A stretch of DNA of 64,000 nt from IMG/VR virus record IMGVR_UViG_3300045988_063953; one strand, given 5' to 3'. The stretch comes from a virus. Below are positions 1,034-62,128 of this stretch, one piece after another (positions within the stretch are counted from its first letter, which is position 1; each line of letters starts with the position of its first letter). Made by a program: the position numbers and the translations under genes. The notes below the pieces were generated by a model, which ran no database searches, had not been told where the DNA came from, and worked only from the letters and a program-made list of their open reading frames with translations.

Positions 1034-1053
1034 CTCCCCCGTAAAAGAAATGT
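1034..1053 (+). repeat. GC-rich dispersed motif copy 1 (CTCCCCCGTAAAAGAAATGT)
   Basis: Exact 12-mer core, 13 nt after the DUF932 gene stop, preceded by CTATAA. Confidence 0.95.
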
Positions 1054-1078
1054 AAGTTAATCAACTTTAACTTTAATC

Positions 1079-1111
1079 TTTATAATCGTACTGAATATTA
1101 TAGTATATTTG
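1079..1111 (+). promoter_or_regulatory. possible Bacteroidota-type promoter for dut (TTTA-N21-TATATTTG)
   Basis: TATATTTG at 1104-1111 matches the TAnnTTTG -7 element. The -33 position has TTTA rather than TTTG (1079-1082). It lies 30 nt upstream of the dut ATG and overlaps a 9-bp hairpin (1083-1091/1112-1120). Confidence 0.35.
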
Positions 1112-1140
1112 GTACGATTAAATATTTAATTCATTTTTAT

Positions 1141-1623
1141 ATGGAAAAAACTGATATTGAAAAAGGTGCTGAAGAAAGTAAAGCACTTGTAGTTAAGTTT
1201 AAGAAACTTAATGATGAAGCTGTTATTCCTTCTTATGCTAAAGAAGGTGATGCTGGACTTGATTTAACAGTTGTAAGTTTTGAGTATGATGAAAAACTCG
1301 ATGCTTATGTTTATCACACAGGTCTTGCTATGGAAATTCCTAAGGGTTATGTAGGACTTGTTTATCCTCGTTCTTCTAATCGTAAGACTGATGCTTATAT
1401 GACTAATCATGTAGGTGTTATTGACTCAGGTTATCGTGGTGAGGTTCTTGTAACATTCAAGAATCGTGATAATTCACGTAACGCAATCAATCCTCCTTAT
1501 GTTAGCGGTGAGCGTGTAGCACAACTTATTGTTATGCCTTATCCTACGATTAACGTAGTAGAAGCTACAGAGTTGTCTGAAACAGAACGTGGAACTGATG
1601 GTCACGGAAGTACTGGTAAGTAA
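1141..1623 (+). CDS. dut: dUTP diphosphatase (dUTPase)
   Basis: 160 aa with the classic trimeric dUTPase motifs: GDAGLDL, PRSS, GVIDSGYRGE, RVAQL and the C-terminal RGTDGHGSTG. Confidence 0.93.
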   Translation: MEKTDIEKGAEESKALVVKFKKLNDEAVIPSYAKEGDAGLDLTVVSFEYDEKLDAYVYHTGLAMEIPKGYVGLVYPRSSNRKTDAYMTNHVGVIDSGYRGEVLVTFKNRDNSRNAINPPYVSGERVAQLIVMPYPTINVVEATELSETERGTDGHGSTGK

Positions 1624-1647
1624 TAACTAACTAATATTAATACAATT

Positions 1648-1950
1648 ATGAAAAAGTATGTAAAAGAAATGGTAGAAGAGCATAGCCAACTCTATGTTCT
1701 TCTTGAGAAACTTAATGACTTTATTTATAATCAAGATACATCTCATATTAATAAGGCTGATTTTGCTAATATGTGTATGCAACTTGCTGCTATGCGTCAG
1801 TATGAGAAGTGTCTTGTTGCTCGTCTTAACAATGCTGGTGTTTCATTTACTGATGGTGCTTATCATGAGTGTGTAGCAGTTATTGCTGCTCCTCAGTGTG
1901 ATTGTGAGGATAAAGACGATGCTGAGGAAAATCAAGAAGATAACGAATAA
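1648..1950 (+). CDS. hypothetical small helical protein with acidic tail
   Basis: 100-aa ORF with an ATG start, packed tightly after dut, with a coding-like composition. I am not confident of any family motif. Confidence 0.6.
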   Translation: MKKYVKEMVEEHSQLYVLLEKLNDFIYNQDTSHINKADFANMCMQLAAMRQYEKCLVARLNNAGVSFTDGAYHECVAVIAAPQCDCEDKDDAEENQEDNE

Positions 1951-2215
1951 CAAGGTTATCCTTGTTACTACTAAAGGTTGTGAAGGTTGTACTATTGCTC
2001 GTAAACTTATTAAAGAAGCAATAGATGACCATTCTAAGACTATTAGTTTTGAACAACAAACTCTTGCAGAATTTGGTAGACGAAGACTTACTGAAATGAA
2101 AATTAAAGATTTTCCTGCAATACTCTTTTATAAAGATGATGTTCTTGTTCATAAACATATTGGTACTGCACCTTTAGCATTTTTCCTAAGATGGTTTGAT
2201 GTATATTTTGATTAA
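1919..2215 (+). CDS. thioredoxin/glutaredoxin-like CxxC protein
   Basis: The ORF track gives 1883..2215. I prefer the internal ATG at 1919 (MLRKIKK...) because it overlaps the upstream stop by only about 30 nt. The VILVTTKGCEGC active-site-like CxxC follows a beta strand, and the size fits a redoxin fold. Confidence 0.6.
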   Translation: MLRKIKKITNNKVILVTTKGCEGCTIARKLIKEAIDDHSKTISFEQQTLAEFGRRRLTEMKIKDFPAILFYKDDVLVHKHIGTAPLAFFLRWFDVYFD

Positions 2216-2244
2216 TATACTTTGTTGTGTTTAGTTTGAGTGTT

Positions 2245-2285
2245 GAATAGGTTGGAGATTAAGTTCTTCAACCTATTCTTTATCT
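2245..2285 (+). terminator. intrinsic terminator after the plus-strand module
   Basis: GAATAGGTTGGAG/CTTCAACCTATTC stem (12 bp, one mismatch) followed by TTTATCTT. Confidence 0.7.
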
Positions 2286-2528
2286 TAATAGGGAACATGA
2301 TACTAATCTTAATGATAACAACATACCATAACACACGCCAACACGTTACAACATCGTGCAAGTACAAACAACATTCTGATACATTGTCAGATTGGCACTT
2401 TGCTTGACTTCTGAAAGGTTTAAGTACTAAAACTGATTAATATATCAAAGACAAAATAATGTCCGATTAGAGAGGAAATTAAAATATAGAATTATTTTCC
2501 ATTTATAGTAAGATTAATAAAATGATTA

Positions 2529-2569: not shown

Positions 2570-2586
2570 ACTATCGCAATTAGTAC

Positions 2587-5900: not shown

Positions 5901-8900
5901 CTAAAACTTCAGCCTTAGCTTTAGCCCATTTGTTCATAGTATCAAAACGTTCTTGGTCAATCTTAGAATCTACATTATCTTTAATAAACTTGAATACTTC
6001 TTTTCTATTAGTAGCACCCTTCTTTTTAGTAGTATCTCTGAGTTCACTATAAAGTTTTTCAAGTTTATGTAAATCATCAATACTAAGAGTGTCAGTTCTA
6101 ACGGATTTTGTATGAGAGTTATAAACCTTTTGTAGAATCTCATTAATCTTCCAAACAATATCATTATATTCTTTAGTAACAACACCATCAGAAGTCATAC
6201 CTTTATAAAAATCAGCAGTATAAACTTCATTACCATCATTACCGTTACGAATAAGTTTTCTTTGAGAAAGACCTGTATTCTGAGAATAATCATAATAAGC
6301 TTTTTGAAGAGCTTTAATATGTTCTACTTGTTCAGGAGTAAGTTTGCTTCCATCAACAACACCTTTATTATCGAGAATATCATGTTTAATAGCAAGACTT
6401 CTAATATAATCACGAGTCTTATTTCTACCATTATTACTTGTTCCTTTAGATACTTTTTTAAGAGCATCACCTACTTCTTCCCAAAAACTTTCTCCATATA
6501 CATAACGAGCATTATGAGCAAGCCATTCTTTAGCCTTAACATATTCATCTTTCTTCATCAATTCAGAAAGAGGAACAGTAAGTTCACCAGCAGCATTTCT
6601 TTCCTCATATGCTTTAATAGTATCAAGATTACGTTTAAGTTCTTCATCAAAACCAAACTTAGAATCATATTTATAATACTTAGCATTGAGTTCTTGCATA
6701 CGCTTAACATATTCTCTCAGTGCAGCACGGTGAACTCCCCCGTAAAGGAGATAACGTTTGTAACCCTCTAAATCAGTTTCTTTATCAGGTACACGTTCCT
6801 CCATATCCATAAGAGGGTCAGTAGCAAGACGATTATCTCCATAAAGTAGTTTATGAATTTCATCTTCTACTTGTTTGAGTTCTTTTTCCCAATGCTCAGA
6901 AAGATTACCTTGAGAATCAATATGATCTCTAATTTCAAATTGACGTTCTTTAAGTTGTTTGTAATGACTAAAGATATATCTATGACCTATAAAGTTAGGG
7001 TCTGTTTCTTTAGGCTGAGTAGCAGCAAATGGGTCAACCGCACCTCTAAATGGGTCATTAGGGTCTTCATAAACTTTAGCTTTACCTATACCATCTTGTA
7101 GAAGAGCCTCTTCAATTCTAAGTTTCTCAGTATAATAATCTTGTCTAAGTTCCTGTTCAAAATGTTCAGCTTCAAAAGCATCAAGTTTATGTTTAGCAAG
7201 AAGATATTCAACATGCTTTTCAGCACCTTGTGCTTTAAGGTTTTGCATATTGTTAAGAAGTTCAACAAAAGTCTTTCTTAAATCATCATTATAATCTTGT
7301 CTTAAACGAGTATTTTCGTCAACAATCTTATTCATATCTATAGTAAGACCTTTTTCACGAGCTTCTTTCTCAACTTCTCTCTTAAACTTATTAAACTCTC
7401 TGACACGTTCTTTGGTAACCATTTCAGCACTTCTGATATTCTCCATAACGTGCTTTGTTATAATCTGAACAATAGGATTAGTACTTTCTTGTAAATCATT
7501 AAACCAAGCCTCGAAAGTATTACTACTATGATAACCATCAAAAACAGTAAGAATATCCTGTATAATATAAGGATTATTACTTAGCTTTTTAAGATATTCA
7601 TTACCAAAGTTTTTAAGTGCTCTATCAAGTTTATTATTAGAAGACAATTCTTTTATTCTATCTTGAATAGTTTCAAGATAATATTTAAGATTCTCATCTT
7701 CTGCATTAACATCAAGATTAGAATACTCAGCAAACTTTCTAATAAGAGCCTTAGCTGTAAGAAGAGTTTTAAGGAACTTATCTCTTTCATCAATATCATT
7801 TGCAATAACATCAATTACTTGAGGGTCATCAATACTAAGATATTTACCTGTTTTAGTATTAGTGGTAAAATAATCAAAGTTATGAAGAATATCCTTAACA
7901 GTACTATCAACAAATTCAGCAGTAATTCTAACAGTACCACCAATATTATCTTTAGCTGCATTAGGATTATTAGTACCAGTAAGTTCTTTATACAAAGCCT
8001 TTGCTTTAACTCCACTTTCAAAACCTGCTTTAGCAACAAAATTAAAAGATTGTACACCTTGCTGAGCAGCTTCTTCATCAAGAGCTGATTGTCTTACTTC
8101 ATCAGGCTTTTCTTGAACATCTTCTGTAACAATATAAAGAGGATAATTAGTAATATCTTTACCATTATCTCTTACAAAGTCTTGAAGTTTCTTAATTGCA
8201 GTTCTTTTACTAATATTAGTAATACCATCAACTTTATCATTAACATTATCATATTTGAGATAGCGTGCGTAGTCTGTGAAAGGTGCTTTGGCAATGGTGT
8301 AACCCATTGGCAAAGATACGCTTGATTTGCCATCAATGCTACGTTCTGTGCTTATGATTTGCTTTACTCCATTAGTAGTACTATTGGACTTAATATAACG
8401 TTCCAAAGCCAAATTTGAAATCCACAAGATTTTTCCATCAGCACCATTATGAACACCAAACCAATCATTAATCTGACGTTTGATACTATCAAAAGCACCA
8501 ACTTCGTTAGGCTTAGGATTGTTCAAATCAAATGGTATATTTTCAACAGCAATACTCTTAGTACCTTTAGTTATGTAATCTGTTGGTGTAACTTGCTTTG
8601 TAGCTTTAAGACGATTCTCAAATTGTTCACTCCATTCATGACTCCAAATAACATCTGCCTTACCAGTGAAATCTTTAATAGCTTCCCAATAAAATCTTTT
8701 ATTAGGAAATTTATTATTTTCAGCATTTGCGCTAATATCACTTTGTTCATTAGCTTCAAGTTTATTAAGAGGAATCAAGAAAATATCTTTTCCGTTATGA
8801 GCATCATAAATCTTATAAAGAACAGGTTCAGCTTTACCATTTTCCTTTAATCGGACATATTTATTGAACATTGGATTTCCATCTTCATCAAAATCACTTA

Positions 8901-11900
8901 TATTATACTTTTCAAGTAATTCTTTCTGATTAATAGAAACACGTTTCATGCCATAATAACTATAACCTAATTCAGACTTCTTATCTACCTTATCAATCTT
9001 TCTTGTAGGAATAGCACGAAGAGTAGGATTACTTCTTAAAAATCTTTCTTCTAAACTATTTATAGCACTTGCTTCAAATGTTTTATCCATACCTCTAAAT
9101 TGGTCATTAACTTCTTGAGTAAAACCAATTCCGTCAAGAATACTACCATTATCAGTTCTGTCATTGAATAGAGTACTATTCTTAATAACTTTACTTACAC
9201 CACCACGACGCATCTTAAAGCCATCAACAACAAAAGCATATTTGATAATATCAATAGCTGTTGCTGCAAGTAATGGATTATTGTTATCAAGAAGTTTTTC
9301 AAAACTATTATAAACAGTTTCAATGTTATCACTATTCTCAATAAAACTAATAGTATGCTTACCAATACGTCCTTTGAATGTATTATGAGTAGAAGCTCTA
9401 AGATACTTAGTAACAAGACCATCACTAAATCTACTTTGAACCCAAAGAACCTTTTGTGCAGGACTAAGAGTAAGAAATTGTCTAACTTCTTCTATAGTAG
9501 GATGATTAGCATCTTTAACGTCAAATGGTACTTTATTACCATCAGCATCTTCTACAAGACTTTGAGCATCTCTATTATAACCAAATATTCTTTGAGTTTC
9601 TTCATAAGCATCATCGACCATCAGATTATCTGTAACAGCAGGTTGTAAACCAAACTCTTCAGAATAACTCATTGGGAATTTAATAGAAGAAACATTACTA
9701 TACATACTACCAAGAACATAGTTTTGATAATCTCTGTAAGTCTGTTCTGTCATTACTTTACTACCTGTAAAGTTCTCAGCAAGATGAGTTATAATACTTC
9801 TAAATCTATCACTTTGTGTAGCAAAAAGAAGTCTATTAACTTTAATAGAAGGTGCAGTAGCATATCTCAAGAAAGCATCAAGAGTAGGATAAGAAGATTT
9901 TACATCACCTTTGTAAGACATATAATCATCAATAGAACCAGACACTCCCGGATATACACTTTCAATAAAGTTTACACCATCTACGTTAAGAAGAATACCA
10001 TTATCTGTATGATTATGTCTATCAATCAAAGTATGAATATCATCAAATACTTTATTTGTAGCAAATATACTTTGTTTAGCACCAAACTTATCTGGATTAC
10101 TTACACGAGCAAGGTCACCAATGTTTTGTGCAAGAGCATTAAGTTTATTGAACTGAAGTATAGTTACAAGGTCAAATACAAGAGAATCAGCATTGTTACT
10201 TTCTTTTACGGGGGAGGTACCAAAAACTCCCTTTTCTTTAATTCTATCACCAAGAAGTTTAGTATCCAAAGGAACATCACTTAAAAAACTATGGTCAAGA
10301 GAAATATTATCTTTAATACCAAATAGTTTAGCAAGGCTCTTTTGAACATCACCATTCTTATTCAGTTCTTCTATTACTTTATCAATAGGAGTAAACTTAT
10401 CAACTTTAATATCTAAAGCCTTAGCAATATCCTTAATAGCAGCATGAATAGGATTATAATTACCAGAAACATAAATAGATTTATTTGCATTATAAGCATC
10501 TACAATTCGAGTAACACCTGGTTGCATAATAAAAGCAACAGCTGTTTCAAAATCAAGTCCAACATCAGGAAACGTTTTGAATACAGCAAAGGTATAATCA
10601 TTCTCATTAGGAATGGCATCCTCTTTAATAGCATCAAGAATATGAGCAGTAGTCTGAGAACTATAAGCAGTAATAATCTTACCTGCAATATTTTTATTAT
10701 TCTTAGACCAACCTAATTTATCAACTGTAAGAGTAATAGTACCTTTATCTGTATCAATAACTGCCATATCACCAAAAGAATCTGTTACAGTCTTAATATC
10801 ATACTTAGCTAAAGGAAGTACAACTTTGAATTGAGCAGACTTATGTATAGTAGGTTTTACAGTATTACAAACAGAACAGAAAGTATCACGAGTTACACTA
10901 AATGCTTTAAGTTTAGCACCAGACATAGCATCATCTTGATACTCAGCTTGGTCAATAACATTATAAGGAGTTCTATTTTGACGAGCAATTTGAGCAGGAG
11001 TTCCAGCATAAATAGCATTACGAGCTTTAATCAAATCATCAAAGTTAGAACGAGAAAGATTTTCTTCAAGACTATCTTCATGAGAAAGAATAGCTTTCAT
11101 ACTATCAAGCATTTTATTTTGACGAGCACGTTTAGTATTCTCTCTGATAATCTTATCTTTATTTTGTTCAGACCATTCATCTCTACTTAGAAGACCATGT
11201 TCTATAGCCCAATTATTATGATTAAATTCTTTATCTTCTAATAAACTTTTATCTTCTACATGATCTTCAACATAGTCATTATAAGATTTATTAGCTACTT
11301 CAATATAAGGAACTTTTCTTATAATACCTTCTTCATCAATAAAAGTATTATACTGAATACCATAAACAGAGTCAATATCAAAGTCAGAACCTGTCTGAGA
11401 AACCCAAGCATCAGGAACTACAATAGTAGAACCTAAAGCATCATCAGTAAAACCTACAACCTTAAACTTACAAACAGATTGTTTACCTTCAGTAGGAATA
11501 CGATAACCAAGAATTTCATCAAGACCTTCAGCTTGAAGTTCTTTAAGCAAATCTTCATCACTCTTAAAACTACCGTCATCATTAATTCTTTTAAAACCAA
11601 AGTTAGCTGCAGGAAGCATTACTTCAATATAATCTGTATAATTACCATTTTTATCAGAATGATATCGAAGACTATGACTATAAGCATAAGACTTTACAGA
11701 CTCACGAATAGCCTTAAAACCAATATTAGTAATCTGAGCAGCATGAAAACCTGGAAGTTTCTGTCTTGTAATACCATTATTAAACATAGCTTGAGCAATA
11801 TTTTCAAGTTTAGTTGAAACATTACTCATAAACAATGGCATACGAGTTAATGGAGTATTTCCAATTCTCTCTTCATCTTGAAGAGTTAGAAAGTCCATCA

Positions 11901-14900
11901 TATTACTATCAAGAGCTTGTCTTTCAGCCTCAGCTTGAAGTTTTTCAAAGAATACTTCAGCATCAAGTCCAACAGGATTACCTTGTTCATCAAGTTTAAG
12001 ATTACCATCTTCGTCTAATTCAAGACCACAATCTTGCATAAGTTGAACAAAATCATCATAAACATTAGCAGCATGACAATCCATAAAAGTTTCTTTATAA
12101 GCATAAAGAGGACTGTCTTTGTCAATGTTATCAACAATTTTCTTCATAATCTGAATAGCAGCTTTATTCTCTGCATTGATATGCTGAGGAGTTTCTTGCT
12201 GAGTATAAAGATGATTATAATCAAAAATCTGACAAGCTTCAGGACTTTTAACAGCTTTACAAAAATCACTCTTAAACCCTGATTCTCTATCTAAATCTTC
12301 AATAATTTTAGAATCAATTTCACCATTATTATCCCAAAGAGTAAGAATATTAGCTTTACCTGCTTTAGAAGTTTCTTCTGTATTAAGCTGGTCAATACCA
12401 AACTTATCCATAAGTTTAGCAACTTGTTCAAGTTGAGTGTCTTTAATAAGACGAGGAACTAATACAAATTCAGCATTTTTAATCTGACGAGGAGCAACTA
12501 CACCAAGTTCAGCATTATAATGTAAATCGTAATAAAAGTTCTTTTGAACTTGAATAAATTCTTTAATATCTTCAGGATTAAGTTCTTGACTTTCATCGAG
12601 AATCTTTTCAATAAGAGGTTTATACTTATTAAATTGACCTCTTGCAGTAACACGACGAACCCACTCATTAAATGTAATATATGATTGAGCATCATTTACT
12701 GTAGTATCTTCGTAACCTTTAAGGAAAGCATTAGCTTTAGTGAGAGCATCTTTCTCACTAAGACCTTCTTTACGATATGCTTTAGCGAGAGCTTTTGCAA
12801 CTACTCCGTTAGCCAATACTTCTTTTTGAGTTCTAATAGTATTCTTAATAGTAACTCCTCTAAAACCATCATACTGACGAACAAAATAATCTTCTTTTGT
12901 TCCATCAGCGTTAATTTTAGTAAATGGTTTACTAAGAGGACTTGTAACTATTTCGTCTTTAGTAACCTTACTATTATCACGAACAGCATTGAATATACCA
13001 TAAGGAACACCTGAACCTTGAACTTCTTTAGCACGTTTAAGAGCAGTCTGAGTATCTTTGTAGAACTTCATATCACCCTCAAAGATATCATCGAAGTTCA
13101 TATACATCAAGTTGTAATTAATAGCAAAATCAGAAATACGTTCAGGAGAAAGATTTTCTTTCTTAAGAACATTTTCAAATTCATTAAGTCTATTAGTACT
13201 ATCAAATACAAAATCTTTAATATATTCAGAAATAGCAGCATCAACAGCTTCTTCTTGAGCTTCATTAAGAACTACAGCACCTGTAGTAGGATTGGTAGTT
13301 ATAGCTTTGGTAGCTCCCCCGTAAAAGAAATCAAATACTGGTTCAACAGAATTACCGCTATTATCTGCATGAGCAAATAGTTCACCAAGATAATTACGAC
13401 CATTAAGTTGGAATTTAGCACTACGAAAAACATTACCTACAAGATAACGTCTACCATCAGATTCTACATAGAACTTACCACCTTTTTGATGATAATTAGC
13501 AAAAGTTTGATTAGGATTAAGTTTAGCTTTATAACCACCCTCACCATCTTCTTCAAATATTTTATCAAAAGCAGTCTTAGCATTAGTAAGTTCTTGCATA
13601 AACACTGCTTTATATTGTTGGTACACAGGAGAAGTCTTATCAATAATCATTTCAAGTTCACCTGAGTTGACCATTGTTTGCCTAAGTTGTTCGTGTATTG
13701 CACTGAGTAGGTCGTCCCCAATTTCTTTAACACCATACGTATCATGACTAAGTACACCTTTGAGAATTGGCTTTTCAAGAACGATACCATTATTATTCTT
13801 ATCACCATAAGTACCCTCAAGAACATACTTAGTAGTAACACCATCATTATTAGTATAATGATAAGTTACTGTAATAGTATCACCTTTTTGCGGTTTACGA
13901 CCTAAAGTTTCTTCAACTTCAGTATTAATATTAGAAACTTTAATAGTTCTACTTCTAAGATTACCTTTAGTTAAATCATAAAGAGCTCTTTTCTTGTCAG
14001 CAATAACAGGAGTAAGAGTATCATAAATTCCCTCTTCACCAGCAGGAATTTCAACAATTTCATTAATCTTAGCATCAATCTTTTTATTAGCCTCAGTAGG
14101 ATTCTTAAGTCTAAACAAAGATTTAGTAGAATAACGAGGAAGAGTAATAACAAAGTTACGAGAAGCATCAGAAGGAGTTCTTAAGAAATAATCTGCAACT
14201 TCAGTATCTTTACCTAATATAGCTTCTTCATTTTCAGCTTCAAAAAAGTGATAAACCTCAGTAGCAATATAATCTGCTTTACTCATATTAGCATAAGTAG
14301 CAGCAGAATCAGAACTTTCATTTGCAGCACCATCAAAAAGTTTAACTTTTGCTAAACGATGAGCATACTCAGTAGGCTGATATTTACCGTAAACAAGTCT
14401 AAACAAACCTTTGTTAATTACTTTACCGTTAGCATCAGTCTTTTCTACAAGAATGTTACTATAATCATATTGATTACTTTGGAACATAAGTTTACCAAAG
14501 TTTTCAAGAGCTTCTTTACTCTGAACAGTTCTAATAAAACCAGTAAGCCAACTACTATTAATCACATTAGAACTTTGATTACCATGAACATTATATGAAT
14601 TAAGTTCAACATTAATAGTAGAATAAGGAGAAAGTTTGTTAGCTAATTCATTACTTAAAGTAATAGCACGAGGAGTCAAATATTCTTGCTCTCGTGCTCC
14701 ACTAACATCTCTATAATCATCAGCTGTTGGATAATGTCCATGAGAATACTTATCCCAAATATCTTGTCTATTAGGATTACCATATTGTTTAGAAGCATCT
14801 AATTCCTTATTAACACTATATGCCTCACGAATATTATTTTCACGAGCAATATAATTGGCTTTTACACTCTCAGCTTCAGCTACTAAAGAATTAGCAATAG

Positions 14901-35453: not shown

Positions 35454-35462
35454 GTAAAGCTA

Positions 35463-35482
35463 ACATCTCTTTTACAGGGGAG
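35463..35482 (-). repeat. GC-rich dispersed motif copy 11, variant (CTCCCCTGTAAAAGAGATGT)
   Basis: One core mismatch. It is the inverted partner of copy 10, 25 nt away. Confidence 0.85.
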
Positions 35483-35560
35483 GTATTGTTTATTATCAGT
35501 TTCACTATCTACTTCACTATCAATAACAATAGTAGTTCCACTATTATTATCTTTTACTGC

Positions 35561-44787: not shown

Positions 44788-45411
44788 TTATTTACTAAAT
44801 ACTTTATTATCAATATAAGTTTCATATTTTCCAATCTCAATATTAAGACGATGTTGGAGTTGTAAGATACGACTAATATCAGACTTCTTTCCATATATGA
44901 CAGAGATTATCGTATTAGATATTTGTTCTATCCATCGTTTGTCTAATTGAGAAGCAACATTAACATTATCTATTTCATAATTAGATAAAATAGAATAAAC
45001 TTTATAATACTCAGTACTAACAAGTTTAAGTATGTTTTCTACTATTTGTTCTTTGTTTTCTTCAACGTGATTAGTAATAATCGTTTCTATACAATCTTCA
45101 TTAAGTTTAGACTTCAATGCTTCAAATGCTAAACGAATAGCATTTTTACATCTTACGTAATCTTTATGTTCTGCATCTTTGAAAGTCTTATCTAATACAT
45201 TGTTAAGCTTAATAACGTTAGAACCAATATCTTTAATAGCAGTAGCCATTTCAATAATTGGTTTGTTACGACTTTTAGCTTTAAGCATATCAATAACTTT
45301 AATAATCAAAGTGTAAATAATAAAGACACAACTTGAAAGAAGAACTGTATTATAAGAAGAACTTCTAACTGCGTTACTTATTAATTCATTAATTGTAGAT
45401 AAATCGTGCAT
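44788..45411 (-). CDS. hypothetical protein with N-terminal hydrophobic segment
   Basis: 207-aa ORF and the first gene after the terminator at 45420-45463. Hydrophobic stretch VLLSSCVFIIYTLIIKV. Confidence 0.6.
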   Translation of the reverse strand: MHDLSTINELISNAVRSSSYNTVLLSSCVFIIYTLIIKVIDMLKAKSRNKPIIEMATAIKDIGSNVIKLNNVLDKTFKDAEHKDYVRCKNAIRLAFEALKSKLNEDCIETIITNHVEENKEQIVENILKLVSTEYYKVYSILSNYEIDNVNVASQLDKRWIEQISNTIISVIYGKKSDISRILQLQHRLNIEIGKYETYIDNKVFSK

Positions 45412-49958: not shown

Positions 49959-51281
49959 TTACAACAAGATGTCATCTATATTTGCTTTTCCTGCTGACTT
50001 AGGTTTAACTCTAACAGTTTTTGTAGCTCTATTATCTTTAGCTTTAAGACGAAGAGTACGAACTTGCTCTTCTTTAATAGCCATATCAACTAAATCTTTA
50101 TATGAACCACCTGTAAATTGAAGAAATGCTCCGATAAGTTCTTTATCTAAATAATCTTTATCAGACATCTTATTCAAATCTCTTTGATATGCAGACATTT
50201 GATTACCTTGTTCGTCCTTAATAGGTTTTGAAAGATAATCATAAAAATCATTACGAGTTAAAGTAATCTTCTTGCCATTAACTTCTCTAACAAAACTTTC
50301 AGGTATTTTGTAACCACCAATAACACCAGAATTAACAGCTTCATTAACAGACTTCCAATAAGCAAGAGTATCATTACGTTCTTGGTCTTGAAGTTCTTTA
50401 GCACGAACAGCATAAGCCTCACGTGTTTCTTTATCCTTTTCTACAAGTAAATCAAGTTGTTGCTTAGCAACATCATAAAGATTACCTGTAGTCTTAAGAT
50501 ACTTAATATAATTATCATCAAGACTCTTATTTCCAAATTCATTAGCAGCAGCACGAATTACATACTCAAGTTGCTGTTCATTATCTTTATCAAGTTGAAT
50601 ACCACTACGGTCAGGAAGTTGACCAAAACCATTAAGAGAACCTCCATTAGCAATGTAGTAATCATCAACTTCTTTAAGATAAGGCTTATCAGCATACAAA
50701 CGATTAATAGCTGCTTCACGTACTTCTTTGCTCTTCAAATCAATAACTGATTCAATATAAGACTTAACACCAGCAGCATCATTTGTAAACTCAACAGGAT
50801 TACCTTCAGCATCCTCTACATCTACACCAACAGCTTCACGAATAGAAGTAATATCAAAGTTAGATGAATCTTTACCATCTTTCTTAGTATCATCATCAAC
50901 TTCCATTGAAGCCATCCAATCTTTAACTTCTTCAGCTTTCTTAAAGACATTACCATCTTTATCAACAAGATTACCATCTTTATCAGCTGTATAATTAGCA
51001 CCATCAAACTCTACAACGGTACCTTCTGAAAGCTCCCCCGTAGAAGCAATGCCATCTTCTGCACCATCTTTTCCATTAGTTTCTGTTGCAGGTTTAGTTT
51101 CTCCACCATTTGCAGGTGCCTCATCAGGATTTTTATTACCATCTGCAGCTGTAATATCTGGAGTTTCTTTGCTACCATTAAGAGGAGTACTTTCCTCATT
51201 AGCAGCTGCTTGATTATTCTCGGGATTAGTAGGAGTACTTGTTGTACCATCCCCATTACCAAAATCAATATCCAAAGCCAT
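49959..51281 (-). CDS. acidic, coiled-coil head-assembly (scaffold-like) protein
   Basis: 440 aa. The N-terminal ~150 aa are low-complexity and acidic (G/D/E/T/N/A), followed by helical KE-rich regions. It lies between portal and capsid and is the first gene after a canonical promoter. Confidence 0.5.
   Translation of the reverse strand: MALDIDFGNGDGTTSTPTNPENNQAAANEESTPLNGSKETPDITAADGNKNPDEAPANGGETKPATETNGKDGAEDGIASTGELSEGTVVEFDGANYTADKDGNLVDKDGNVFKKAEEVKDWMASMEVDDDTKKDGKDSSNFDITSIREAVGVDVEDAEGNPVEFTNDAAGVKSYIESVIDLKSKEVREAAINRLYADKPYLKEVDDYYIANGGSLNGFGQLPDRSGIQLDKDNEQQLEYVIRAAANEFGNKSLDDNYIKYLKTTGNLYDVAKQQLDLLVEKDKETREAYAVRAKELQDQERNDTLAYWKSVNEAVNSGVIGGYKIPESFVREVNGKKITLTRNDFYDYLSKPIKDEQGNQMSAYQRDLNKMSDKDYLDKELIGAFLQFTGGSYKDLVDMAIKEEQVRTLRLKAKDNRATKTVRVKPKSAGKANIDDILL
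51033..51052 (+). repeat. GC-rich dispersed motif copy 13, variant (CTCCCCCGTAGAAGCAATGC)
   Basis: One core mismatch, antisense inside the scaffold-like ORF (peptide ASTGELS). Confidence 0.8.
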
Positions 51282-54117: not shown

Positions 54118-56394
54118 TTAAAACCAATCTCTTTCAAGAATATGACTTCTATCTTTTTTGACAATCTTCTTTCTATGTTCAAGTTCTTTTGCAGCTTCAA
54201 CATTAGCATAACGCCATTGAATACCTCTTAAAAGCATTTCAGAAACTCTATCAAAGTTACCTAAATTATTCCACTTTTTAAGTTCAAGAATAGATTGATA
54301 ATCATATATAGTTTGATAAAGTTTAATATCATTACCTTTCTTATCTTTACCAATAACTGAATAAAGCATTTCTTTAAGTAAACGAAGACCTTCAAGTTTC
54401 TTAAACTCAGAACCCATATTAATACCATAATGAGAAACTGTTTCAGTTTTAATTTTAGTATCCCAAATATCAACAGGGTCTTTCATAAGATAACTAAGTG
54501 CTTTCCACTTTGAAAAGTTACTAACAGTTTCACCACGATTGACCTCAACACCAACAGTACCAACACAATTATAATACCTTGCAAGATTATAACAAATTCT
54601 ATCAGCTTCTTCAAGTTTTTCAGTACGACCATAATAAGCACATACAAGAGCTGTTTTGAAACCATTATATTTACAAGGGTTCATCCATACTTTGATACTA
54701 TTATGAGAATGTCGAAGAGTAACTTCTTTATTCTCTTTATTAATACCAACTGGGTCATAAGTTATAGAATACATTCCGGGAGGAGTACCAAAACATTCTT
54801 TACCAGTTCTATCAATATAATTAGTCTTTAATGGATTAAACCATTTTCTAATACAACCATGAGGATGTTCATGTCCTTTACGAGGAACACCATTAATCCA
54901 ATCATAAAAATCAACATTGTGTTTACCTCCCTCAGCAGCTATACGTGCATTAGTTCTGAACTCAACTTTATCATTTGTTTCAAACAAAGCACCGTCAACA
55001 TAAAAATTAAAAGCATTATCAGTTCTAAGTCTTTCCTCCCAAGCGAGTAGTTCTTCACTACTAAAAAGATTCTCTGTAGTAGAAGAAAAAGACTCACTTG
55101 GCATATTAGCATACTGACCAAGATAATTAACATAATCACTAAAAGTTTTACTATTCTCTTTTTTATTCTTACGTTCTTTATAAGCAATACGTATAGCAGT
55201 TTCTAAATCAGAATTACCATTTTCATCTAAAGCAAACTTACCATTGTCTTCTCCTTGAAGACCCCATACGTATGGCTTAAAATAACCACAAACTTCATTA
55301 CGACAATCTTTATCCCAAACATTTTCAAAAGGCATAAAGTTAAATGCTTTTGGAGCATAAAAGTTACGCTCAAATACTTGCATATTACCAGATGTCGCAG
55401 TACCCCAAGCAAAGAGATTTCCTGTAAGATATGAACCAGTACGCATAGCAGGTTCAGTAACAGCCATAAATTCATCAAAGTTTTCCATAGTAGAAAGCTC
55501 TTCTACTTTAGTATCCATTGAATCCTTACCAATAGCACAATCAGGATTATTCATTGCAGATACACTAAAAAGTGTACTTCCCCAAGATTTTGGAGATTCA
55601 ACTCCATTAGGTAGTTTGAAACCTAACTTAAAGTTTTCTTTATCTGTAGAAAGAATACCTCTTACAAAAGGTGTTCGAGTTTCAAAGAAACGAAGATTAT
55701 TAATAGCAAAATCAGTAAGACCACCAGTCTTAGTTAGATACTTCTTATCAGCAGCAACATTAATACAAACTTTCTTAGGATTAAGATTTATATTATTAGC
55801 AGTATCTGAAGCCATAATATAAGAAAAACCTCCACGACGTGTTTTGTCAATGATAAGATTAAAACCATTATTACGACAAAAATTCATGATTTCAAAAGTC
55901 CAATATTGAGCATCAATAAACTTAGGAAAATCATAAATCTTTTTACCAACGGCAACATTACCATTATTAGTTGCAGTACGTATGTCAAGCTGTTGAATAA
56001 GAATATAATTAAGATAATTATACATAGTACCAGAAATAGTAATATCTATTACTTTTCCGTTACGTATAAGACAAGGAGCAGTATAACCATTTTTTCTACG
56101 ATATTCTTCTCTCTTACGAAACTGTCTATGAGGTATAGTATCTTCTTTATAAAAACTATATGCTTTATTAGCTCTAAAGAAATCAGCAGCTTCAGTTAGA
56201 AGATGTATATCTATAAACTCATCATCAGCATTTATATTGAGAAGAAATCCACCACTATCTCCAATAAGAAAACTATCATTAAGATCAATATAACCTACAT
56301 CTTTAGCATGGGTATAACGAGATTTATCCTCTCTGATATAATTCAGAAAAGGATAATCTCTAATTACTTCTTCAATAGGTTTATCTATATTCAT
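54118..56394 (-). CDS. terL: terminase large subunit
   Basis: 758 aa adjacent to the portal gene. It has a degenerate P-loop-like IDKTRRGGFS segment and acidic segments downstream. Size and synteny fit crAss-like TerL. Confidence 0.7.
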   Translation of the reverse strand: MNIDKPIEEVIRDYPFLNYIREDKSRYTHAKDVGYIDLNDSFLIGDSGGFLLNINADDEFIDIHLLTEAADFFRANKAYSFYKEDTIPHRQFRKREEYRRKNGYTAPCLIRNGKVIDITISGTMYNYLNYILIQQLDIRTATNNGNVAVGKKIYDFPKFIDAQYWTFEIMNFCRNNGFNLIIDKTRRGGFSYIMASDTANNINLNPKKVCINVAADKKYLTKTGGLTDFAINNLRFFETRTPFVRGILSTDKENFKLGFKLPNGVESPKSWGSTLFSVSAMNNPDCAIGKDSMDTKVEELSTMENFDEFMAVTEPAMRTGSYLTGNLFAWGTATSGNMQVFERNFYAPKAFNFMPFENVWDKDCRNEVCGYFKPYVWGLQGEDNGKFALDENGNSDLETAIRIAYKERKNKKENSKTFSDYVNYLGQYANMPSESFSSTTENLFSSEELLAWEERLRTDNAFNFYVDGALFETNDKVEFRTNARIAAEGGKHNVDFYDWINGVPRKGHEHPHGCIRKWFNPLKTNYIDRTGKECFGTPPGMYSITYDPVGINKENKEVTLRHSHNSIKVWMNPCKYNGFKTALVCAYYGRTEKLEEADRICYNLARYYNCVGTVGVEVNRGETVSNFSKWKALSYLMKDPVDIWDTKIKTETVSHYGINMGSEFKKLEGLRLLKEMLYSVIGKDKKGNDIKLYQTIYDYQSILELKKWNNLGNFDRVSEMLLRGIQWRYANVEAAKELEHRKKIVKKDRSHILERDWF

Positions 56395-56771
56395 TACTTG
56401 AACAAACTTAATATTAATAATCCTATTGATAATATACTACCACCAATAGCAATATTTCTTTGACGCTTAACTTTTTTAACATTAGCATCTTTTTGTTTAC
56501 TTATAACTTTATAATTATTAATGATAATACTATCATTCTTAATTATATCATTAAGTTTACTATTAGTTAACTTACAATATTTAAGCTCAGTAAGTTTAAC
56601 ATTAACTCTACGTAAATCATCATAAGCTATAAGTACACTATCTTTACTAACGCTGTCTGCTTGCTCCCCCGTAAAAGGGATGCGAGCATCAGTATTACTC
56701 TTTGACCAACTTGTAGAATAGTTTGACAGTACTATCATTGTCAAGACTACTAATCTCAATAACTTCTGCAT
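56394..56771 (-). CDS. small protein with N-terminal signal-like and C-terminal transmembrane segments
   Basis: 125 aa. Its stop overlaps the terL ATG (TAATG). Its 5' 77 nt overlap the upstream 96-aa gene in another frame. It contains a GC-rich motif copy. Confidence 0.5.
   Translation of the reverse strand: MQKLLRLVVLTMIVLSNYSTSWSKSNTDARIPFTGEQADSVSKDSVLIAYDDLRRVNVKLTELKYCKLTNSKLNDIIKNDSIIINNYKVISKQKDANVKKVKRQRNIAIGGSILSIGLLILSLFK
56664..56683 (+). repeat. GC-rich dispersed motif copy 14 (CTCCCCCGTAAAAGGGATGC)
   Basis: Exact core, antisense inside the 125-aa ORF (peptide PFTGEQA). Confidence 0.9.
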
Positions 56772-57602: not shown

Positions 57603-58595
57603 TTAAAATAAACTAAGTTCTTTATTTTGTTTAATACTATTAGCTTTTAGATAACTAAGTCTATCAGCTAAAACTAAATCAGCTTCTTTACTTAAATAAT
57701 TAATTCTAAACCACTTAACAGTTTCTTCACCATCAGGGTCAATAGGATACTGATTATTAGTATCTCTAAAAGGTTGTCCATAAGCATTCTTTACAAAAGG
57801 ACTACCAATATGACAAAGACCTAAACCTTTACAAGGAATATCAAGAATAAGTTCAACCATCTTAGCATACATAGATAATTGCATAGTATAATGACTACCA
57901 TTACAATTAGGAAGATGATTAAGAGGAGGTAACATACGTTCATCTTTTCTTACCCATTCATTAGTAAGTTGTGCAGGATTAGTAGTCTTATCTTTTTTGA
58001 AATAACCACTTTCAAATATAAGACCATTACGATTAGTCTTCCAATCAAGAATGACAAAATCAGTAGGTCTGTAACAAAGAATATCAATAGTTCCACTTAT
58101 AAGATAATCCATAAGAAAAGAACCAATCTCAGAATAAATTACATATCCTAATTTAGTATAGTGGTCAAACACTCTATAAATCTCAGGATATTTATTATTA
58201 GTAGCCTCTTTGAAGTTATCAACATCAAGAGGTTGAGGAATCATCTGAGGAATATCAGCAACAGTAACACAACGACCTGTTTGAATATTAGTAAGATATT
58301 GAATAGCATTCTTAAACATACTAACATCTTTAATTGCATTCTCAATACCATTATGTGTTTTACTACCACGGGCACAAGCCTCATCAGTAACATCTTGCCA
58401 TTGTTTAGCAAGAGTTTTTTCACTTATACCAAGTTCCTTACTTTTCTTATGAAGCCAATATTTCTTATTAAACTCAGGACAATAATTGTCATGAATTAAA
58501 GTAGTAACACTGACATAAGGATTACCTGCACTATCAGTATATTTATGACCTTCTTCTTGAAAATAAAGAAAATTACTCAAATATCTTTCGTCCAT
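57603..58595 (-). CDS. PD-(D/E)XK family nuclease (RecB/Cas4-like exonuclease)
   Basis: 330 aa with GTIDILCY...FVILDWKTN (D...D/E-x-K) and a downstream MQLSMYAKM (QxxxY), the usual motif order of RecB-type nuclease domains. Confidence 0.7.
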   Translation of the reverse strand: MDERYLSNFLYFQEEGHKYTDSAGNPYVSVTTLIHDNYCPEFNKKYWLHKKSKELGISEKTLAKQWQDVTDEACARGSKTHNGIENAIKDVSMFKNAIQYLTNIQTGRCVTVADIPQMIPQPLDVDNFKEATNNKYPEIYRVFDHYTKLGYVIYSEIGSFLMDYLISGTIDILCYRPTDFVILDWKTNRNGLIFESGYFKKDKTTNPAQLTNEWVRKDERMLPPLNHLPNCNGSHYTMQLSMYAKMVELILDIPCKGLGLCHIGSPFVKNAYGQPFRDTNNQYPIDPDGEETVKWFRINYLSKEADLVLADRLSYLKANSIKQNKELSLF

Positions 58596-59688: not shown

Positions 59689-60171
59689 TTAGTTATCTGA
59701 TGAAACAACTTCTGCAGTATGACCAAAGTATAACTTTAGTTGTGCATAGTTACTATTATAAGTATTACAAAGTCTACGATATAATCTTCTATTATGATTA
59801 GCTGCAATACTACATATATACTTATAATATCTATTATTCTTAGCTTTGTTCTTATTCTCAGCAGCAAGTTGATTTCTAAATAAGATATATTCATTACCTT
59901 TTAGAAGTTCTTTTGCTTCATCAAGAAGACCCTCAGCTCTTTGTTGTATAAGAATAACTTTATCAGCAGGTACTCTAATACTACCTAAATTAGGTATTCC
60001 AGTCCAACGTCCACTATTAATAAAGTTAGCAGCATCAGTTTCTAATTGTTCAATAAGCGCAAGAGCAACTTCTTTATCTGTGATATTCACATCAATAGTG
60101 TTTATAATATCTTCTTTACGAACTACTTTAATAGAATAACCACCATTTGGAAATTTAATTTCTCTAACCAT
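59689..60171 (-). CDS. hypothetical protein
   Basis: 160-aa ORF and the first gene after the hairpin at 60197-60219. Confidence 0.55.
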   Translation of the reverse strand: MVREIKFPNGGYSIKVVRKEDIINTIDVNITDKEVALALIEQLETDAANFINSGRWTGIPNLGSIRVPADKVILIQQRAEGLLDEAKELLKGNEYILFRNQLAAENKNKAKNNRYYKYICSIAANHNRRLYRRLCNTYNSNYAQLKLYFGHTAEVVSSDN

Positions 60172-60180
60172 TGTTTCACT

Positions 60181-60219
60181 ATTAAATTAAACTATAGGGA
60201 GAGGCACGATACCTCCCCC
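60181..60219 (-). terminator. hairpin/terminator built from motif copy 15
   Basis: On the minus-strand RNA, GGGGGAGG pairs with CCUCUCCC across a 7-nt loop (8 bp, one G-U wobble), followed by UAUAGUUUAAUUUAAU. On the plus strand the same position would be a C-A mismatch. Confidence 0.5.
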
Positions 60220-60232
60220 GTAAAAGCAATGT
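60213..60232 (+). repeat. GC-rich dispersed motif copy 15 (CTCCCCCGTAAAAGCAATGT)
   Basis: Exact core, ending 2 nt from the stop of gene 60235..60759. Its C-run pairs with GGGAGAGG at 60197-60204. Confidence 0.95.
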
Positions 60233-60234
60233 GA

Positions 60235-60759
60235 TTAGTTCTCTGTATCACTAACCTCAGTAATATAATCAGCTTTAATTGGATTATGTACTCCAATAAC
60301 TGCATTAATATTACAATTAGGAACTAACTTAAACTCAACAAAACGATAAATATTCTTATCAGAAAAAGAAGTCTTACGAACATTATCATCTCCTGCTAAA
60401 AGAGCAGAAACTTTATTAAGCGAAAGTTGATTATAAGAATTAGGAACGTGAATAGCTAAAGAAAGATTACCACTTGTTATAGTAAGAATATCTTTAGTAT
60501 TAATTCCTTTAATAAACTCACTATCTGTTTTACCTGCTTTTACAAACATTGGAACAACAGCAACATTAGCAGGAACATTCTTCATATTAAGAACTTGACT
60601 AATAGTAGTGCTATAAACTAAAGCTACAAGAGAATATTCAGGAGCAACCTTAATATGTTCTGTAACTTCTATAAGATACACAGGATTAATCTCATCAATA
60701 CTTGTTGGAAGATTAAGAATTACTTTACCTTTTTCGGTATTAACTGTAATACTATTCAT
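60235..60759 (-). CDS. hypothetical protein, first gene of the minus-strand block
   Basis: 174-aa ORF bordering the 1.6-kb ORF-free region. Confidence 0.6.
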   Translation of the reverse strand: MNSITVNTEKGKVILNLPTSIDEINPVYLIEVTEHIKVAPEYSLVALVYSTTISQVLNMKNVPANVAVVPMFVKAGKTDSEFIKGINTKDILTITSGNLSLAIHVPNSYNQLSLNKVSALLAGDDNVRKTSFSDKNIYRFVEFKLVPNCNINAVIGVHNPIKADYITEVSDTEN

Positions 60760-60922
60760 ACTATCAAAATCTTTAATTAATTATTATAATATATTATTTA
60801 TATAATACTAATCTTAGTACTGAAAGCAAAGATAAACAATATATTCCAAATAGTCAAGTAACTATATAATAAATGTGTTAAATTTAATATCTGTTTAGAC
60901 ATTAGTTAAAATTAGTGAAATT

Positions 60923-60954
60923 CTTGGAACTATAAATTATAATGCTTACATTTG
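60923..60954 (+). promoter_or_regulatory. possible promoter (CTTG-N20-TACATTTG) in the ORF-free region
   Basis: TACATTTG at 60947-60954 fits TAnnTTTG. The -33 position has CTTG (60923-60926). It points toward the terminator-like hairpin at 61521-61557. Confidence 0.3.
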
Positions 60955-61520
60955 GTGTCAAAGTTAATGTTATAGTGTTACTGATGTTCATACTGATAGT
61001 GGTATTTATCTTGATAGGCTATTGGACGATAATGCTAAAGATATTACAATGAAGTTAATAACATTGATAGTTGTAATAAACGAAATAAAACTCGTATAAG
61101 CATTACAGATGGTTTTTAAGTTATGTTTCTATATACTGAACGTTTAAGTGACGCAAGATATATTAACTAACAGATTTAGCCTGATACTGTTTGAGGGTCT
61201 ATATTACTTACCCAACGTAGTTGTCGTTTTGATAACGGAGATACTTTTGGTAATAGTGTAAAACTCTACCTCTTACGGAAACCACTCGTCCTCTTATTAG
61301 ATGTCCTGCTTTTGATAAAAAGTTTTTCAGCATTTCAGAAAATAAAAAATTTTTCTATTTTTCAAGCAGGTACTCTAATAATCAAGACCGAATTGTGTCC
61401 TTATGTGAACCGTCCTATTCTTGGTTATATATTTTTAATGTACGTTCGTCTTATACATTTAATTGTTAATTTTCAAACATTCGGATAATGTGCTACATTT
61501 ACTGCTTATGTAAATGGTTG

Positions 61521-61557
61521 AGGCTACTGCTTGTGAAAGTAGTAGCCTTAATTTTTA
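61521..61557 (+). terminator. terminator-like hairpin in the ORF-free region
   Basis: AGGCTACT/AGTAGCCT 8-bp stem with a 12-nt loop, followed by TAATTTTTAT on the plus strand only. Confidence 0.5.
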
Positions 61558-62128
61558 TCGTATGTTTGAGAGTGTTGTAGAATGTTGTCCTGAGTTGAAT
61601 AGTGTTATAGCTTGTTGTTCTATTGAATTTTCTCTTATTGGTACAATAAGAGAAAGAAATGCTCTTGCTTATGTTCCAGATAAGATTAGACAAAGCATTA
61701 CATGGCTTTTACGGGGGAGCTATCCATCCAAGTGTTTGACTAAATGATAGTATTAATAGCAATATAAGAGAATTTTAATATGAAAAACATACTCTTACAC
61801 TTTATAACACACGAATAACATTCTACAACTTGGAACAACATACGATAGTAGTAGTGAAAGAAGTGCCGAAGAATATCATTAAAAAGATGTTGAAGATAAT
61901 ATTGAAAGTAGTGAAATTAATATTGTTTATTTAATGTCTGAAAGTAATGCTGATTAAATTTATAATAATATTAACCTTGAAAGAATTGTAATATGTGACA
62001 TTAATGATGCTTTTGTATTACTAATACTTATAATTAAATATATTATGAAACATATAATACAGAAAATACTATTGTAAAGACTGATACTATAGAAAATAAA
62101 AATGAACTTAATATTGTGAAAGGAAGTA
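61534..62128 (+). repeat. iteron-like TGAAAGWARTG repeats (6 copies)
   Basis: TGAAAG starts at 61534, 61855, 61903, 61939, 61978 and 62117, each followed by a similar (A/T)A(G/A)T(G/A) tail. All are on the plus strand within the ORF-free region. Confidence 0.5.
61700..61719 (-). repeat. GC-rich dispersed motif copy 16 (CTCCCCCGTAAAAGCCATGT)
   Basis: Exact core on the minus strand inside the ORF-free control region. Confidence 0.9.

Follow-up and report, generated by a model that had tools for sequence, protein, structure and literature searches.

A dispersed, lineage-variable DNA word, regularly spaced on most strands of crAss-like phage genomes of the family Intestiviridae

The DNA considered here is a stretch of 64,000 nucleotides (nt) from the IMG/VR virus record IMGVR_UViG_3300045988_063953, which we call the window. 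It comes from a crAss-like phage of the family Intestiviridae, subfamily Obtuvirinae, and takes in 64 kb of a genome of ~90 kb, the replication module of which lies outside it. Over the conserved genes it shares ~75% nucleotide identity with ctcc615 (from mouse), cr271_1 (pig), and cr8_1 (human). The window holds the two giant open reading frames (ORFs) of the virion RNA polymerase (4477 and 2371 amino acids [aa]), genes for tail, capsid, portal, and terminase proteins, a PD-(D/E)XK exonuclease-like gene, and a divergent junction with another gene block. Scattered through all of this, on both strands, are 16 copies of a word built around the 12-mer CTCCCCCGTAAA. The word was spotted by a model working from the letters and their ORFs, an account we refer to as the sequence-only reading. 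Having followed it up across the family, we hold it highly probable that the word is a strand- or direction-specific cis-site read by a phage-encoded protein, the specificity of which has drifted together with its sites.

Twelve of the 16 copies match the 12-mer exactly, and each lies at the position and on the strand where the sequence-only reading had placed it; its four near copies (19852, 44692, and 51033 on the plus strand and 35471 on the minus strand) are likewise all present. Base composition predicts 0.0014 exact copies rather than 12, close to the ~0.001 that had been estimated by hand, and none appeared in any of 100 dinucleotide-preserving shuffles of the window, a comparison of the kind that could have refuted the claim. 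Site lists, here and below, are a function of the pattern definitions and mismatch limits used: with up to two mismatches allowed, the window yields 17 matches against 0.9 expected, and 16 of these share a common 3′ extension. The 17th, at 25674 (CTCCACCGTTAA, two mismatches), is without the extension and is probably there by chance. It had been noticed that runs of five C or five G are nearly absent elsewhere, and indeed 15 of the 16 such runs in the window sit in motif copies. Read along the motif strand, the full site is T-A-N-CTCCCCCGTA(A/G)A-R-G-N-R-A-T-G, a two-part, asymmetric word with ~23 informative positions, worth ~34 to 36 bits, and with a conserved A 2 to 3 nt on the 5′ side of its C run. 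The sequence-only reading, with its ~20-nt motif and (A)GnAATGT extension, had made the site somewhat too short; there is a T-A-N at the 5′ end and an R-G-N-R-A-T-G at the 3′ end. The copies at 1034 and 28178 (first and ninth in order) are, as reported, identical across 20 nt. The word is GC-rich, the genome AT-rich (30% G+C), and the tally in the window is 10 plus-strand and 6 minus-strand copies.

The motif is a property of the family. The sequence-only reading had asked for a search of related genomes, and all seven Intestiviridae analyzed (the window among them; three subfamilies) carry it on both strands, with 16 copies in the window and ~17 to 32 in each of the six relatives, where the split between strands is ~1:1. 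Each genome has its own spelling: (G/T)A(C/G)-CTCCCCCGTAGAAGG in ctcc615 (21 copies), AG-CTCCCCCGTAGAAGARATG in cr271_1 (17 copies), CTAG-CC(G/C)CCCCGTAAAAGGTATGTA in cr8_1 (27 copies), and AC(C/T)CCCCGT(A/G)GAGGATGGA, also AC[C/T]CCCCGT[A/G]GAGGATGG, in the prototype crAssphage, Carjivirus communis (31–32 copies). Two cultured phages complete the set, ‘Rudgehvirus jaberico’ (hereafter jaberico; OQ198719) with 26 copies of CCCC(T/C)GTA(A/G)AGGAG and crAss002 (MN917146) with 28 copies of TTCCCCC(G/A)TA(A/G)AGGAG. Common to all the variants is a run of C followed by (G/A)TA-R-A-R-G. They differ in having A or G at core position 11, C/T or G/A beside the C run, and T/C and C/G at core positions 2 and 3. 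Since the motif turns up in independent mouse, pig, and human assemblies as well as in three cultured phages, an assembly artifact is ruled out. Nor does the word come from the host: among 185,579 bacterial and archaeal genomes (one per species, 596 Gb), we found 69 single matches in unrelated taxa, which is chance level, and no bacterial genome with multiple copies. That scan rules out a host-derived word or a host Chi site. In phi14:2, a phage outside the Intestiviridae, no outlier word was found.

How the copies are laid out on each strand is far from random. On most strands, the gaps between same-strand copies have a coefficient of variation (CV) of 0.24 to 0.46, where random placement would give ~1, and a permutation test of spacing returns p ≤ 0.005 on 8 of the 10 strands of the first five genomes. 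In both jaberico and crAss002, one strand is just as regular and the other not significantly so. Pooled over six genomes, the 135 same-strand gaps include none under 2 kb, although ~31 such gaps would be expected, the median being 7.0 kb and the 5 to 95% range 3.2 to 14 kb. Copies on opposite strands, meanwhile, are often close neighbors. A minus-strand partner lies within 300 nt of 19 of the 69 plus-strand copies against 5.4 expected, a figure that none of 2000 random shifts reached; of these 19 pairs, 14 converge and 5 diverge. Along the genome, 80 of 109 neighboring pairs switch orientation (p = 5e-7), as follows automatically from two interleaved regular series. The succession of copies through the giant ORFs of the window is 2958 (minus), 6735 (plus), 10205 (minus), 13314 (plus), 16745 (minus), and 19852 (plus), in steps of 3.1 to 3.8 kb. 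GC and AT skew do not change across ~160 sites at scales of 0.5 to 3 kb, so fixed switch points of replication asymmetry are ruled out. The one clear exception to the even cover of both strands is to be found in cr271_1, where a 38-kb stretch of structural genes, from ~86.4 kb through the ends of the record to 31.9 kb, has minus-strand copies only.

The motif takes little notice of genes. With genes called by a simple longest-ORF rule, 65% of copies are genic, and the 48 of 138 that are intergenic compare with 11 expected, an approximately fourfold enrichment. In the window, nine copies fall within ORFs, and the others lie between genes or directly 3′ of stop codons; the sequence-only reading had described copies after stops, in spacers, and deep inside ORFs, in both orientations, and had judged the motif indifferent to gene structure, all of which is borne out by frames, orientations, and positions. 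Antisense genic copies are translated as YGG, TGE, or LRGS, in three different frames, and sense copies as SPVK. Four translations, from both strands and in differing frames, rule out a peptide repeat. Pooling the genic copies of all seven genomes gives a sense-to-antisense ratio of 35:55, which matches the 2:3 to be expected when one sense frame in three would place a stop codon (TAA or TAG) inside the gene; motif orientation is therefore unrelated to transcription. In the prototype crAssphage, orientations are mixed on both sides of the switch in gene direction at 29.3 kb. Single copies are nonpalindromic, and seven of them, folded as single-stranded DNA, were no more stable than shuffled sequences (z from −1.6 to +1.1). 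Rfam and tRNA scans gave no match. Only two places in the window fold, 2925 to 2962 (−9.3 kcal/mol as DNA, z = −4.4) and the two-copy hairpin at 35434 to 35482 (−9.6 kcal/mol, z = −2.6). The motif is a signal at the level of DNA, independent of genes; it is neither peptide nor RNA, nor does it direct transcription. Taken together, spacing, pairing, and placement imply that a copy on one strand cannot stand in for a copy on the other, that each strand needs cover about every 7 kb, and that copies go between genes where possible and otherwise into tolerant coding stretches, which accounts for the close pairs.

Are these the same sites from phage to phage? Conservation at orthologous positions was another check that the sequence-only reading had proposed, and many copies are matched. 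We projected the window sites onto the six relatives by way of flanking protein similarity. In the three close genera, 7 to 9 of the 12 to 14 mappable sites have a same-orientation copy no more than 45 nt from the homologous place, and the sites at 13314, 51033, and 56664 are matched in the same way in the prototype crAssphage, jaberico, and crAss002, which belong to other subfamilies. A positional match of this kind has a chance probability of ~1 to 2% per site. A protein alignment of the 4477-aa giant ORF from four genera puts copies in identical columns and orientations (columns 1187 and 2422, and just past the stop), and protein alignments around genic copies reveal no insertion of a copy relative to orthologues. 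At orthologous places each genome has its own variant: at the 51033 site, for instance, jaberico reads CCCCTGTAGA and the prototype crAssphage CCCCGTGGAGGATG. All the copies in a lineage must then have changed together, partly through synonymous changes. Over shorter distances the core hardly changes at all. Among relatives 91 to 97% identical to the window, it has taken 2 substitutions in 242 positions as opposed to 342 in 5757 for the flanks (Fisher p = 1e-4), an approximately sevenfold slower rate, and the degenerate 3′ positions are free to vary. The 12-nt core is under purifying selection. When divergence from seven close relatives was profiled, no consistent step that would mark recombination boundaries appeared at motif positions.

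With the scales tipped only slightly its way, we favor the view that the Intestiviridae possess a genome-wide, strand-oriented marking system, in which a private word of ~23 nt recurs on each strand about every 7 kb, evenly and even through essential genes, for a phage enzyme that would act on one strand. The general reading beneath this view is the one that we hold highly probable: the phage maintains one usable copy per strand in each such interval, between genes if possible and otherwise written into tolerant coding sequence, and a phage protein reads the site, working on a single strand or in a single direction at any one time. We infer that its specificity drifts with its sites and that the two orientations are not interchangeable. 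As to the activity itself, the candidates are nicking of both strands, lagging-strand priming at fixed sites, or a Chi-like signal owned by the phage.

Site-specific nicking on both strands would be the most likely specific mechanism, although our estimate for it is only about three in ten. On this account, a phage endonuclease would cut one strand at each copy, leaving localized single-strand interruptions on both strands, and recombination, replication, or packaging could then make use of the 3′-OH ends or swivel points. Nicking has precedents. Conserved asymmetric motifs of 9 to 20 nt mark the nicks in tf/Rembedalsseter, T5, and phiKMV; that of tf/Rembedalsseter, WACTRTGAC, occurs at 13 sites, 88% of them within genes, and is conserved in 61 phages. 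The likenesses to the crAss-like motif are several: a short-to-medium, asymmetric, strongly over-represented word kept across a family despite low nucleotide similarity, with about ten or more sites per genome, inside genes and outside them and regardless of transcription. The nick consensus of phiKMV-like phages is CGACNNNNNCCTACTCCGG. The recognition site for a DNA-binding or nicking factor suggested by the sequence-only reading accordingly fits the evidence, unlike the two other roles suggested alongside it, to which we return below.

Several points weigh against nicking. Known nick motifs (T5, tf/Rembedalsseter, phiKMV) lie on one strand and are unevenly spread, whereas the crAss-like motif uses both strands equally and evenly. 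Nor are they enriched between genes, unlike the crAss-like motif with its approximately fourfold enrichment and frequent close inverted pairs. The literature searched yielded no data on single-strand interruptions in crAss-like virion DNA. Every genome has convergent pairs 29 to 120 nt apart, which, if both copies were nicked, would become staggered double nicks and so weak points. A swivel function would not require regular spacing on each strand, and there is no local shift in strand composition (GC or AT skew) at the sites. Finally, we could link no nuclease to the motif: the window has a single conserved one, which is PD-(D/E)XK exonuclease-like, and the HNH and GIY-YIG genes of the relatives are not universal.

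Two other strand-specific activities deserve a hearing, unlikely as each of them is. In the first, a copy on a single-stranded template would tell the phage primase (DnaG family) or another RNA-synthesizing enzyme where to start, providing a start site per strand roughly every 7 kb and a C-rich primer able to pair stably in a genome of 30% G+C. The need to cover each template strand predicts just the regular, independent spacing that we see. The site is also asymmetric and GC-rich in an AT-rich genome, with its conserved A just before the C run; every crAss-like genome in the comparison has the conserved primase; and the crAss-like virion RNA polymerase, which has no known promoter motif, requires a single-stranded or denatured DNA template in vitro. 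Plasmid ssi sites (ssiA, ssiB) and the complementary-strand origins of G4 and phiX174 are strand-specific priming signals in cis, read by a plasmid or phage primase and sometimes arranged as inverted pairs. A replicon, however, has only one or two of these, as structured hairpins, whereas the crAss-like copies are unstructured and number 16 to 31 per genome. Known DnaG-type primases read 3 to 5 nt rather than 20, the copies have no orientation bias toward the lagging-strand template and no shift in strand composition at the sites, and we know of no large double-stranded DNA (dsDNA) phage with fixed priming sites. The other possibility, to which we would give similarly long odds, is a polar signal of the Chi type that is private to the phage: a phage helicase-nuclease or DNA motor would read one orientation and alter its behavior, for example by stopping degradation, so that a word absent from the host marks phage DNA as self and an oriented copy is met within ~7 kb of any break. 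Such a system needs both orientations evenly covered, and they are. Picking out 25 sites in 90 kb takes ~13 bits; the ~34 bits of the word go far beyond this and suffice to keep it out of a host genome of several Mb. Lineage-specific variants would suit coevolution with a phage enzyme, and all the Intestiviridae compared encode a Dda/RecD-like superfamily 1 (SF1) helicase together with PD-(D/E)XK exonuclease-like, Gam-like end-protection, and RecT-like proteins, although a helicase-nuclease complex among them is putative only. Like Chi, which occurs about once per 5 kb, the motif would be an orientation-dependent word read by a moving enzyme and marking self DNA. Chi sites, though, are 5 to 8 nt long, read by the host RecBCD or AddAB, abundant (indeed over-represented) in the host genome, and biased in orientation with replication, whereas the crAss-like word is ~23 nt long, lineage-variable, absent from bacteria, and unbiased. 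Variants moreover differ between jaberico and crAss001, phages of sister host species, which does not fit a host Chi, and we know of no phage-encoded enzyme that reads Chi.

The remaining explanations are less likely still. An architectural or regulatory protein that binds the duplex (for compaction, capsid organization, or looping) and performs no strand chemistry is improbable in our estimation. A long, two-part, asymmetric word is typical of protein recognition, and this one is genome-wide, even, and kept across the family; but if orientation did not matter, pairs 30 to 300 nt apart would be redundant, yet they are enriched (19 against 5.4) and same-strand copies never come within 2 kb. The genes of relatives annotated as IHF-like, moreover, encode tail ring proteins. 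Strand-specific base modification, by an asymmetric methyltransferase or other modifying enzyme, is quite improbable: phages often modify specific motifs, and the word is asymmetric and conserved, but modified motifs are usually 4 to 6 nt and need no regular spacing, and no methyltransferase is annotated in the gene tables of the relatives. We regard as very improbable a selfish mini-repeat that spreads by insertion and does nothing for the phage, in the manner of mitochondrial GC clusters, repetitive extragenic palindromic (REP) sequences, or in-frame palindromic elements. REP and bacterial interspersed mosaic elements (BIMEs) and the GC clusters are indeed dispersed and rich in GC, lie in otherwise different sequence, and often come as inverted pairs that alternate in orientation; here too a GC-rich word stands in an AT-rich genome, inverted pairs occur among the copies, and one relative has a clean 12-nt deletion of a core. 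Those elements, however, are palindromic, extragenic, and variable in position, whereas the crAss-like copies are nonpalindromic, mostly genic, orthologous across genera and subfamilies, and under purifying selection, with no insertion relative to orthologues and with an even spacing per strand that would be unexpected of a spreading element. Least credible of all is an RNA element, or a site at which an RNA polymerase of phage or host starts, pauses, or terminates. It is true that several copies lie just past stop codons and that hairpins form at 2925 to 2962 and 35434 to 35482. The sequence-only reading had offered both a promoter, pause, or termination signal for the phage-encoded RNA polymerase and a modular RNA-structure element. 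The former does not survive a motif that is 65% genic, random in orientation after correction for the stop-codon frame (35:55), and unchanged in its mix of orientations at the 29.3-kb flip of the prototype crAssphage, nor the latter single copies that do not fold and have no Rfam match.

We found no description of the motif in the literature searched, in line with what the sequence-only reading had supposed; that search covered four variants as written on either strand, the crAss transcription study, and the large comparative genomics paper in which cr271_1 and cr8_1 were introduced, but reached little of the subscription journals, so an earlier mention is possible. Dispersed cis-acting phage motifs are known, nick-site motifs being the closest; the combination of both strands, even spacing on each, and close pairs is without a described counterpart. 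Few viruses of the human gut are as abundant as the Intestiviridae, and little is known of how their DNA is replicated, recombined, and packaged. A signal of ~34 bits, kept on both strands at regular intervals at the price of constraining essential coding sequence, implies an important and undescribed DNA transaction. Were it nicking, these would be the first phages with programmed interruptions on both strands; priming or a Chi-like signal would be a new mechanism for a dsDNA phage, and a strand-oriented marking system a genome organization not described for one. With two cultured carriers, crAss002 (28 copies) and jaberico (26), the idea is directly testable. The motif is of practical use as well: Intestiviridae contigs can be recognized and classified by the lineage-specific word, a compact signature, and its sites matter to anyone engineering or recoding these phages.

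Which protein might be the reader? A phyletic profile (BLASTP) of six complete Intestiviridae genomes against four outgroup crAss-like phages tied no protein to the motif. Present in the six and in none of the four are the RecT-like protein, SSB, gp19, and some structural proteins. In the prototype crAssphage, gp19 (13727–14554; 275 aa) is encoded between the RecT-like and SSB genes and matches no Pfam or PHROG family; it is a candidate for a family-specific DNA function. Other candidate readers are the Dda/RecD-like helicase (gp14 in the prototype crAssphage), the primase, and, in the window, the PD-(D/E)XK exonuclease-like protein (57603–58595) and the DUF932 protein (41–1021). An IHF-like phage protein as binder was ruled out, the window homologue being tail ring protein 2 (PF25702, CrAss_Ring_2).

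Going through the window from its left end, the first copy (1031–1053, plus strand, exact core from 1034) is intergenic, 13 nt past the stop codon of the ORF at 41 to 1021 (a DUF932 protein) and co-directional with it, and has a same-orientation counterpart at the homologous place in ctcc615 and cr271_1. The next (2950–2972, minus; exact core, 2958–2969) lies directly 3′ of the stop of the 4477-aa ORF, with an orthologue after the same stop codon in ctcc615, cr271_1, and cr8_1. Here also, on the minus strand at 2925 to 2962, is a 16-bp hairpin that lies directly beyond the stop codon. One of its arms is the 3′ half of the motif (GTAAAGGAATGGTGATG), and the other, a downstream complement, has no C run; the hairpin resembles a terminator added to a motif copy. 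Three copies with exact cores lie inside the 4477-aa ORF. That at 6732 to 6754 (plus) is antisense at aa 3222, in the C-terminal third, where the protein reads L-Y-G-G. Its counterpart in cr271_1 is 12 alignment columns away and in another frame (F-T-G-E rather than YGG), which points to turnover of the site with its position kept. The copy at 10197 to 10219 (minus; core, 10205–10216) is sense, S-P-V-K at aa 2065, and shares alignment column 2422 (sense, SPV) with ctcc615, cr271_1, and cr8_1. The third, at 13311 to 13333 (plus), is antisense, F-Y-G-G at aa 1029, and shares column 1187 (antisense, YGG) with the same three genomes; in all six relatives, the prototype crAssphage included, a same-orientation match lies 4 to 75 nt from the homologous place.

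The 2371-aa ORF has two copies. At 16737 to 16759 (minus; core, 16745–16756), an exact core is sense at aa 2285 (S-P-V-K) and is kept in L002, a relative 91% identical to the window; the gene in the other genera has its sense copy ~350 alignment columns upstream. At 19849 to 19871 (plus), the copy is antisense (Y-T-G-E) and has one mismatch (GTATA); L002 has GTAGA at this place, so the T is a recent change. Two exact cores then fall within the ORF at 26806 to 28806, one sense at 27900 to 27922 (minus; core, 27908–27919; S-P-V-K) and the other antisense at 28175 to 28197 (plus; L-R-G-S). They form a divergent pair 270 nt apart, and the plus-strand member has an orthologue in cr8_1 and jaberico. 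Upstream of the gene for tail ring protein 2, an intergenic pair makes the two arms of the 35434 to 35482 hairpin: an exact core on the left (35431–35453, plus) and, on the right, a copy with one mismatch (35463–35485, minus; CTCCCCTGTAAA) that is decaying in the relative L016. Orthologous pairs are found in cr271_1 (31904 plus and 31984 minus) and cr8_1 (37722 plus and 37796 minus).

The intergenic copy at 44689 to 44711 (plus), between the ORFs at 43961 to 44563 and 44788 to 45411, has two mismatches; its form, CACCCCCGTAGA, is common among the copies of ctcc615 and cr271_1. At 51030 to 51052 (plus) is a copy with one mismatch (GTAGA), antisense at aa 80 of the ORF at 49959 to 51281 (S-T-G-E), matched in the same orientation 9 to 29 nt from the homologous place in five of the six relatives, each with its own lineage variant. 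The exact copy at 56661 to 56683 (plus) is antisense in the ORF at 56394 to 56771 (F-T-G-E). Its core is identical in four close relatives, in which the degenerate 3′ positions vary, and it is orthologous in five of the six distant ones. Between the ORFs at 59689 to 60171 and 60235 to 60759 lies an exact, intergenic copy (60210–60232, plus) with orthologues in ctcc615, cr271_1, and cr8_1. The last, at 61700 to 61722 (minus; exact core, 61708–61719), is in a stretch of ~1.7 kb without long ORFs, at the divergent junction of the gene blocks. A relative ~90% identical (L001:1–235, corresponding to window 61651–61896) has a clean 12-nt deletion that takes out exactly CCCCCGTAAAAG from this copy, with a 2-nt microhomology (CC) at its edges: a natural loss of one site.

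No ORF in the junction itself (60760–62460) exceeds 77 aa. The inverted copies at 60213 (plus) and 61708 (minus), which make up a 37-nt inverted repeat that is 81% complementary, flank this stretch, and it could be an origin or control region. A little further on, at the start of the second gene block (62320–63608), four copies of a 26-nt element, CTCATACTAAACAAAACAAATTTTGG (73–100% alike), stand upstream of small plus-strand ORFs; with TTTG at its end, like promoters of the Bacteroidetes type, it may be a repeated early or middle promoter. In the record of cr8_1, a terminal overlap of 55 nt ends within the G run of a motif copy, and the break there is probably due to poor sequencing or assembly through a G8 homopolymer, not to a physical end of the genome.

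Other families of crAss-like phages have repeated words of their own. In crAss001 (Steigviridae, MH675552), the 9-mer CTCCAGAAG occurs 27 times in bases 1 to 100000 of 102679, against 0.4 to 0.8 expected, on both strands; its orientation alternates in 19 of 26 neighboring pairs, and its plus-strand spacing is regular (CV 0.46, p = 0.0002). Only two of the 27 copies are intergenic, giving no intergenic enrichment, and the word looks unrelated to that of the Intestiviridae, of which it may nonetheless be a shorter analogue. A weak 9-mer, CCA(A/G)AGTAA, is present on both strands of cr55_1 (Suoliviridae, MT774376) in 31 irregularly spaced copies where ~2 are expected; the annotation of that phage includes an ECF-type sigma factor and a retron-type reverse transcriptase. 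In cr127_1 (Crevaviridae, NC_055886; 26% G+C), a different GC-rich repeat of ~40 nt, cgaatttcggaacacctctcGCCCTTGTGGCCattaaac, is found in 10 mostly intergenic copies; three inverted pairs lie 170 to 560 nt apart, and the repeat contains GGAAC, like the −35 box of ECF-sigma promoters.

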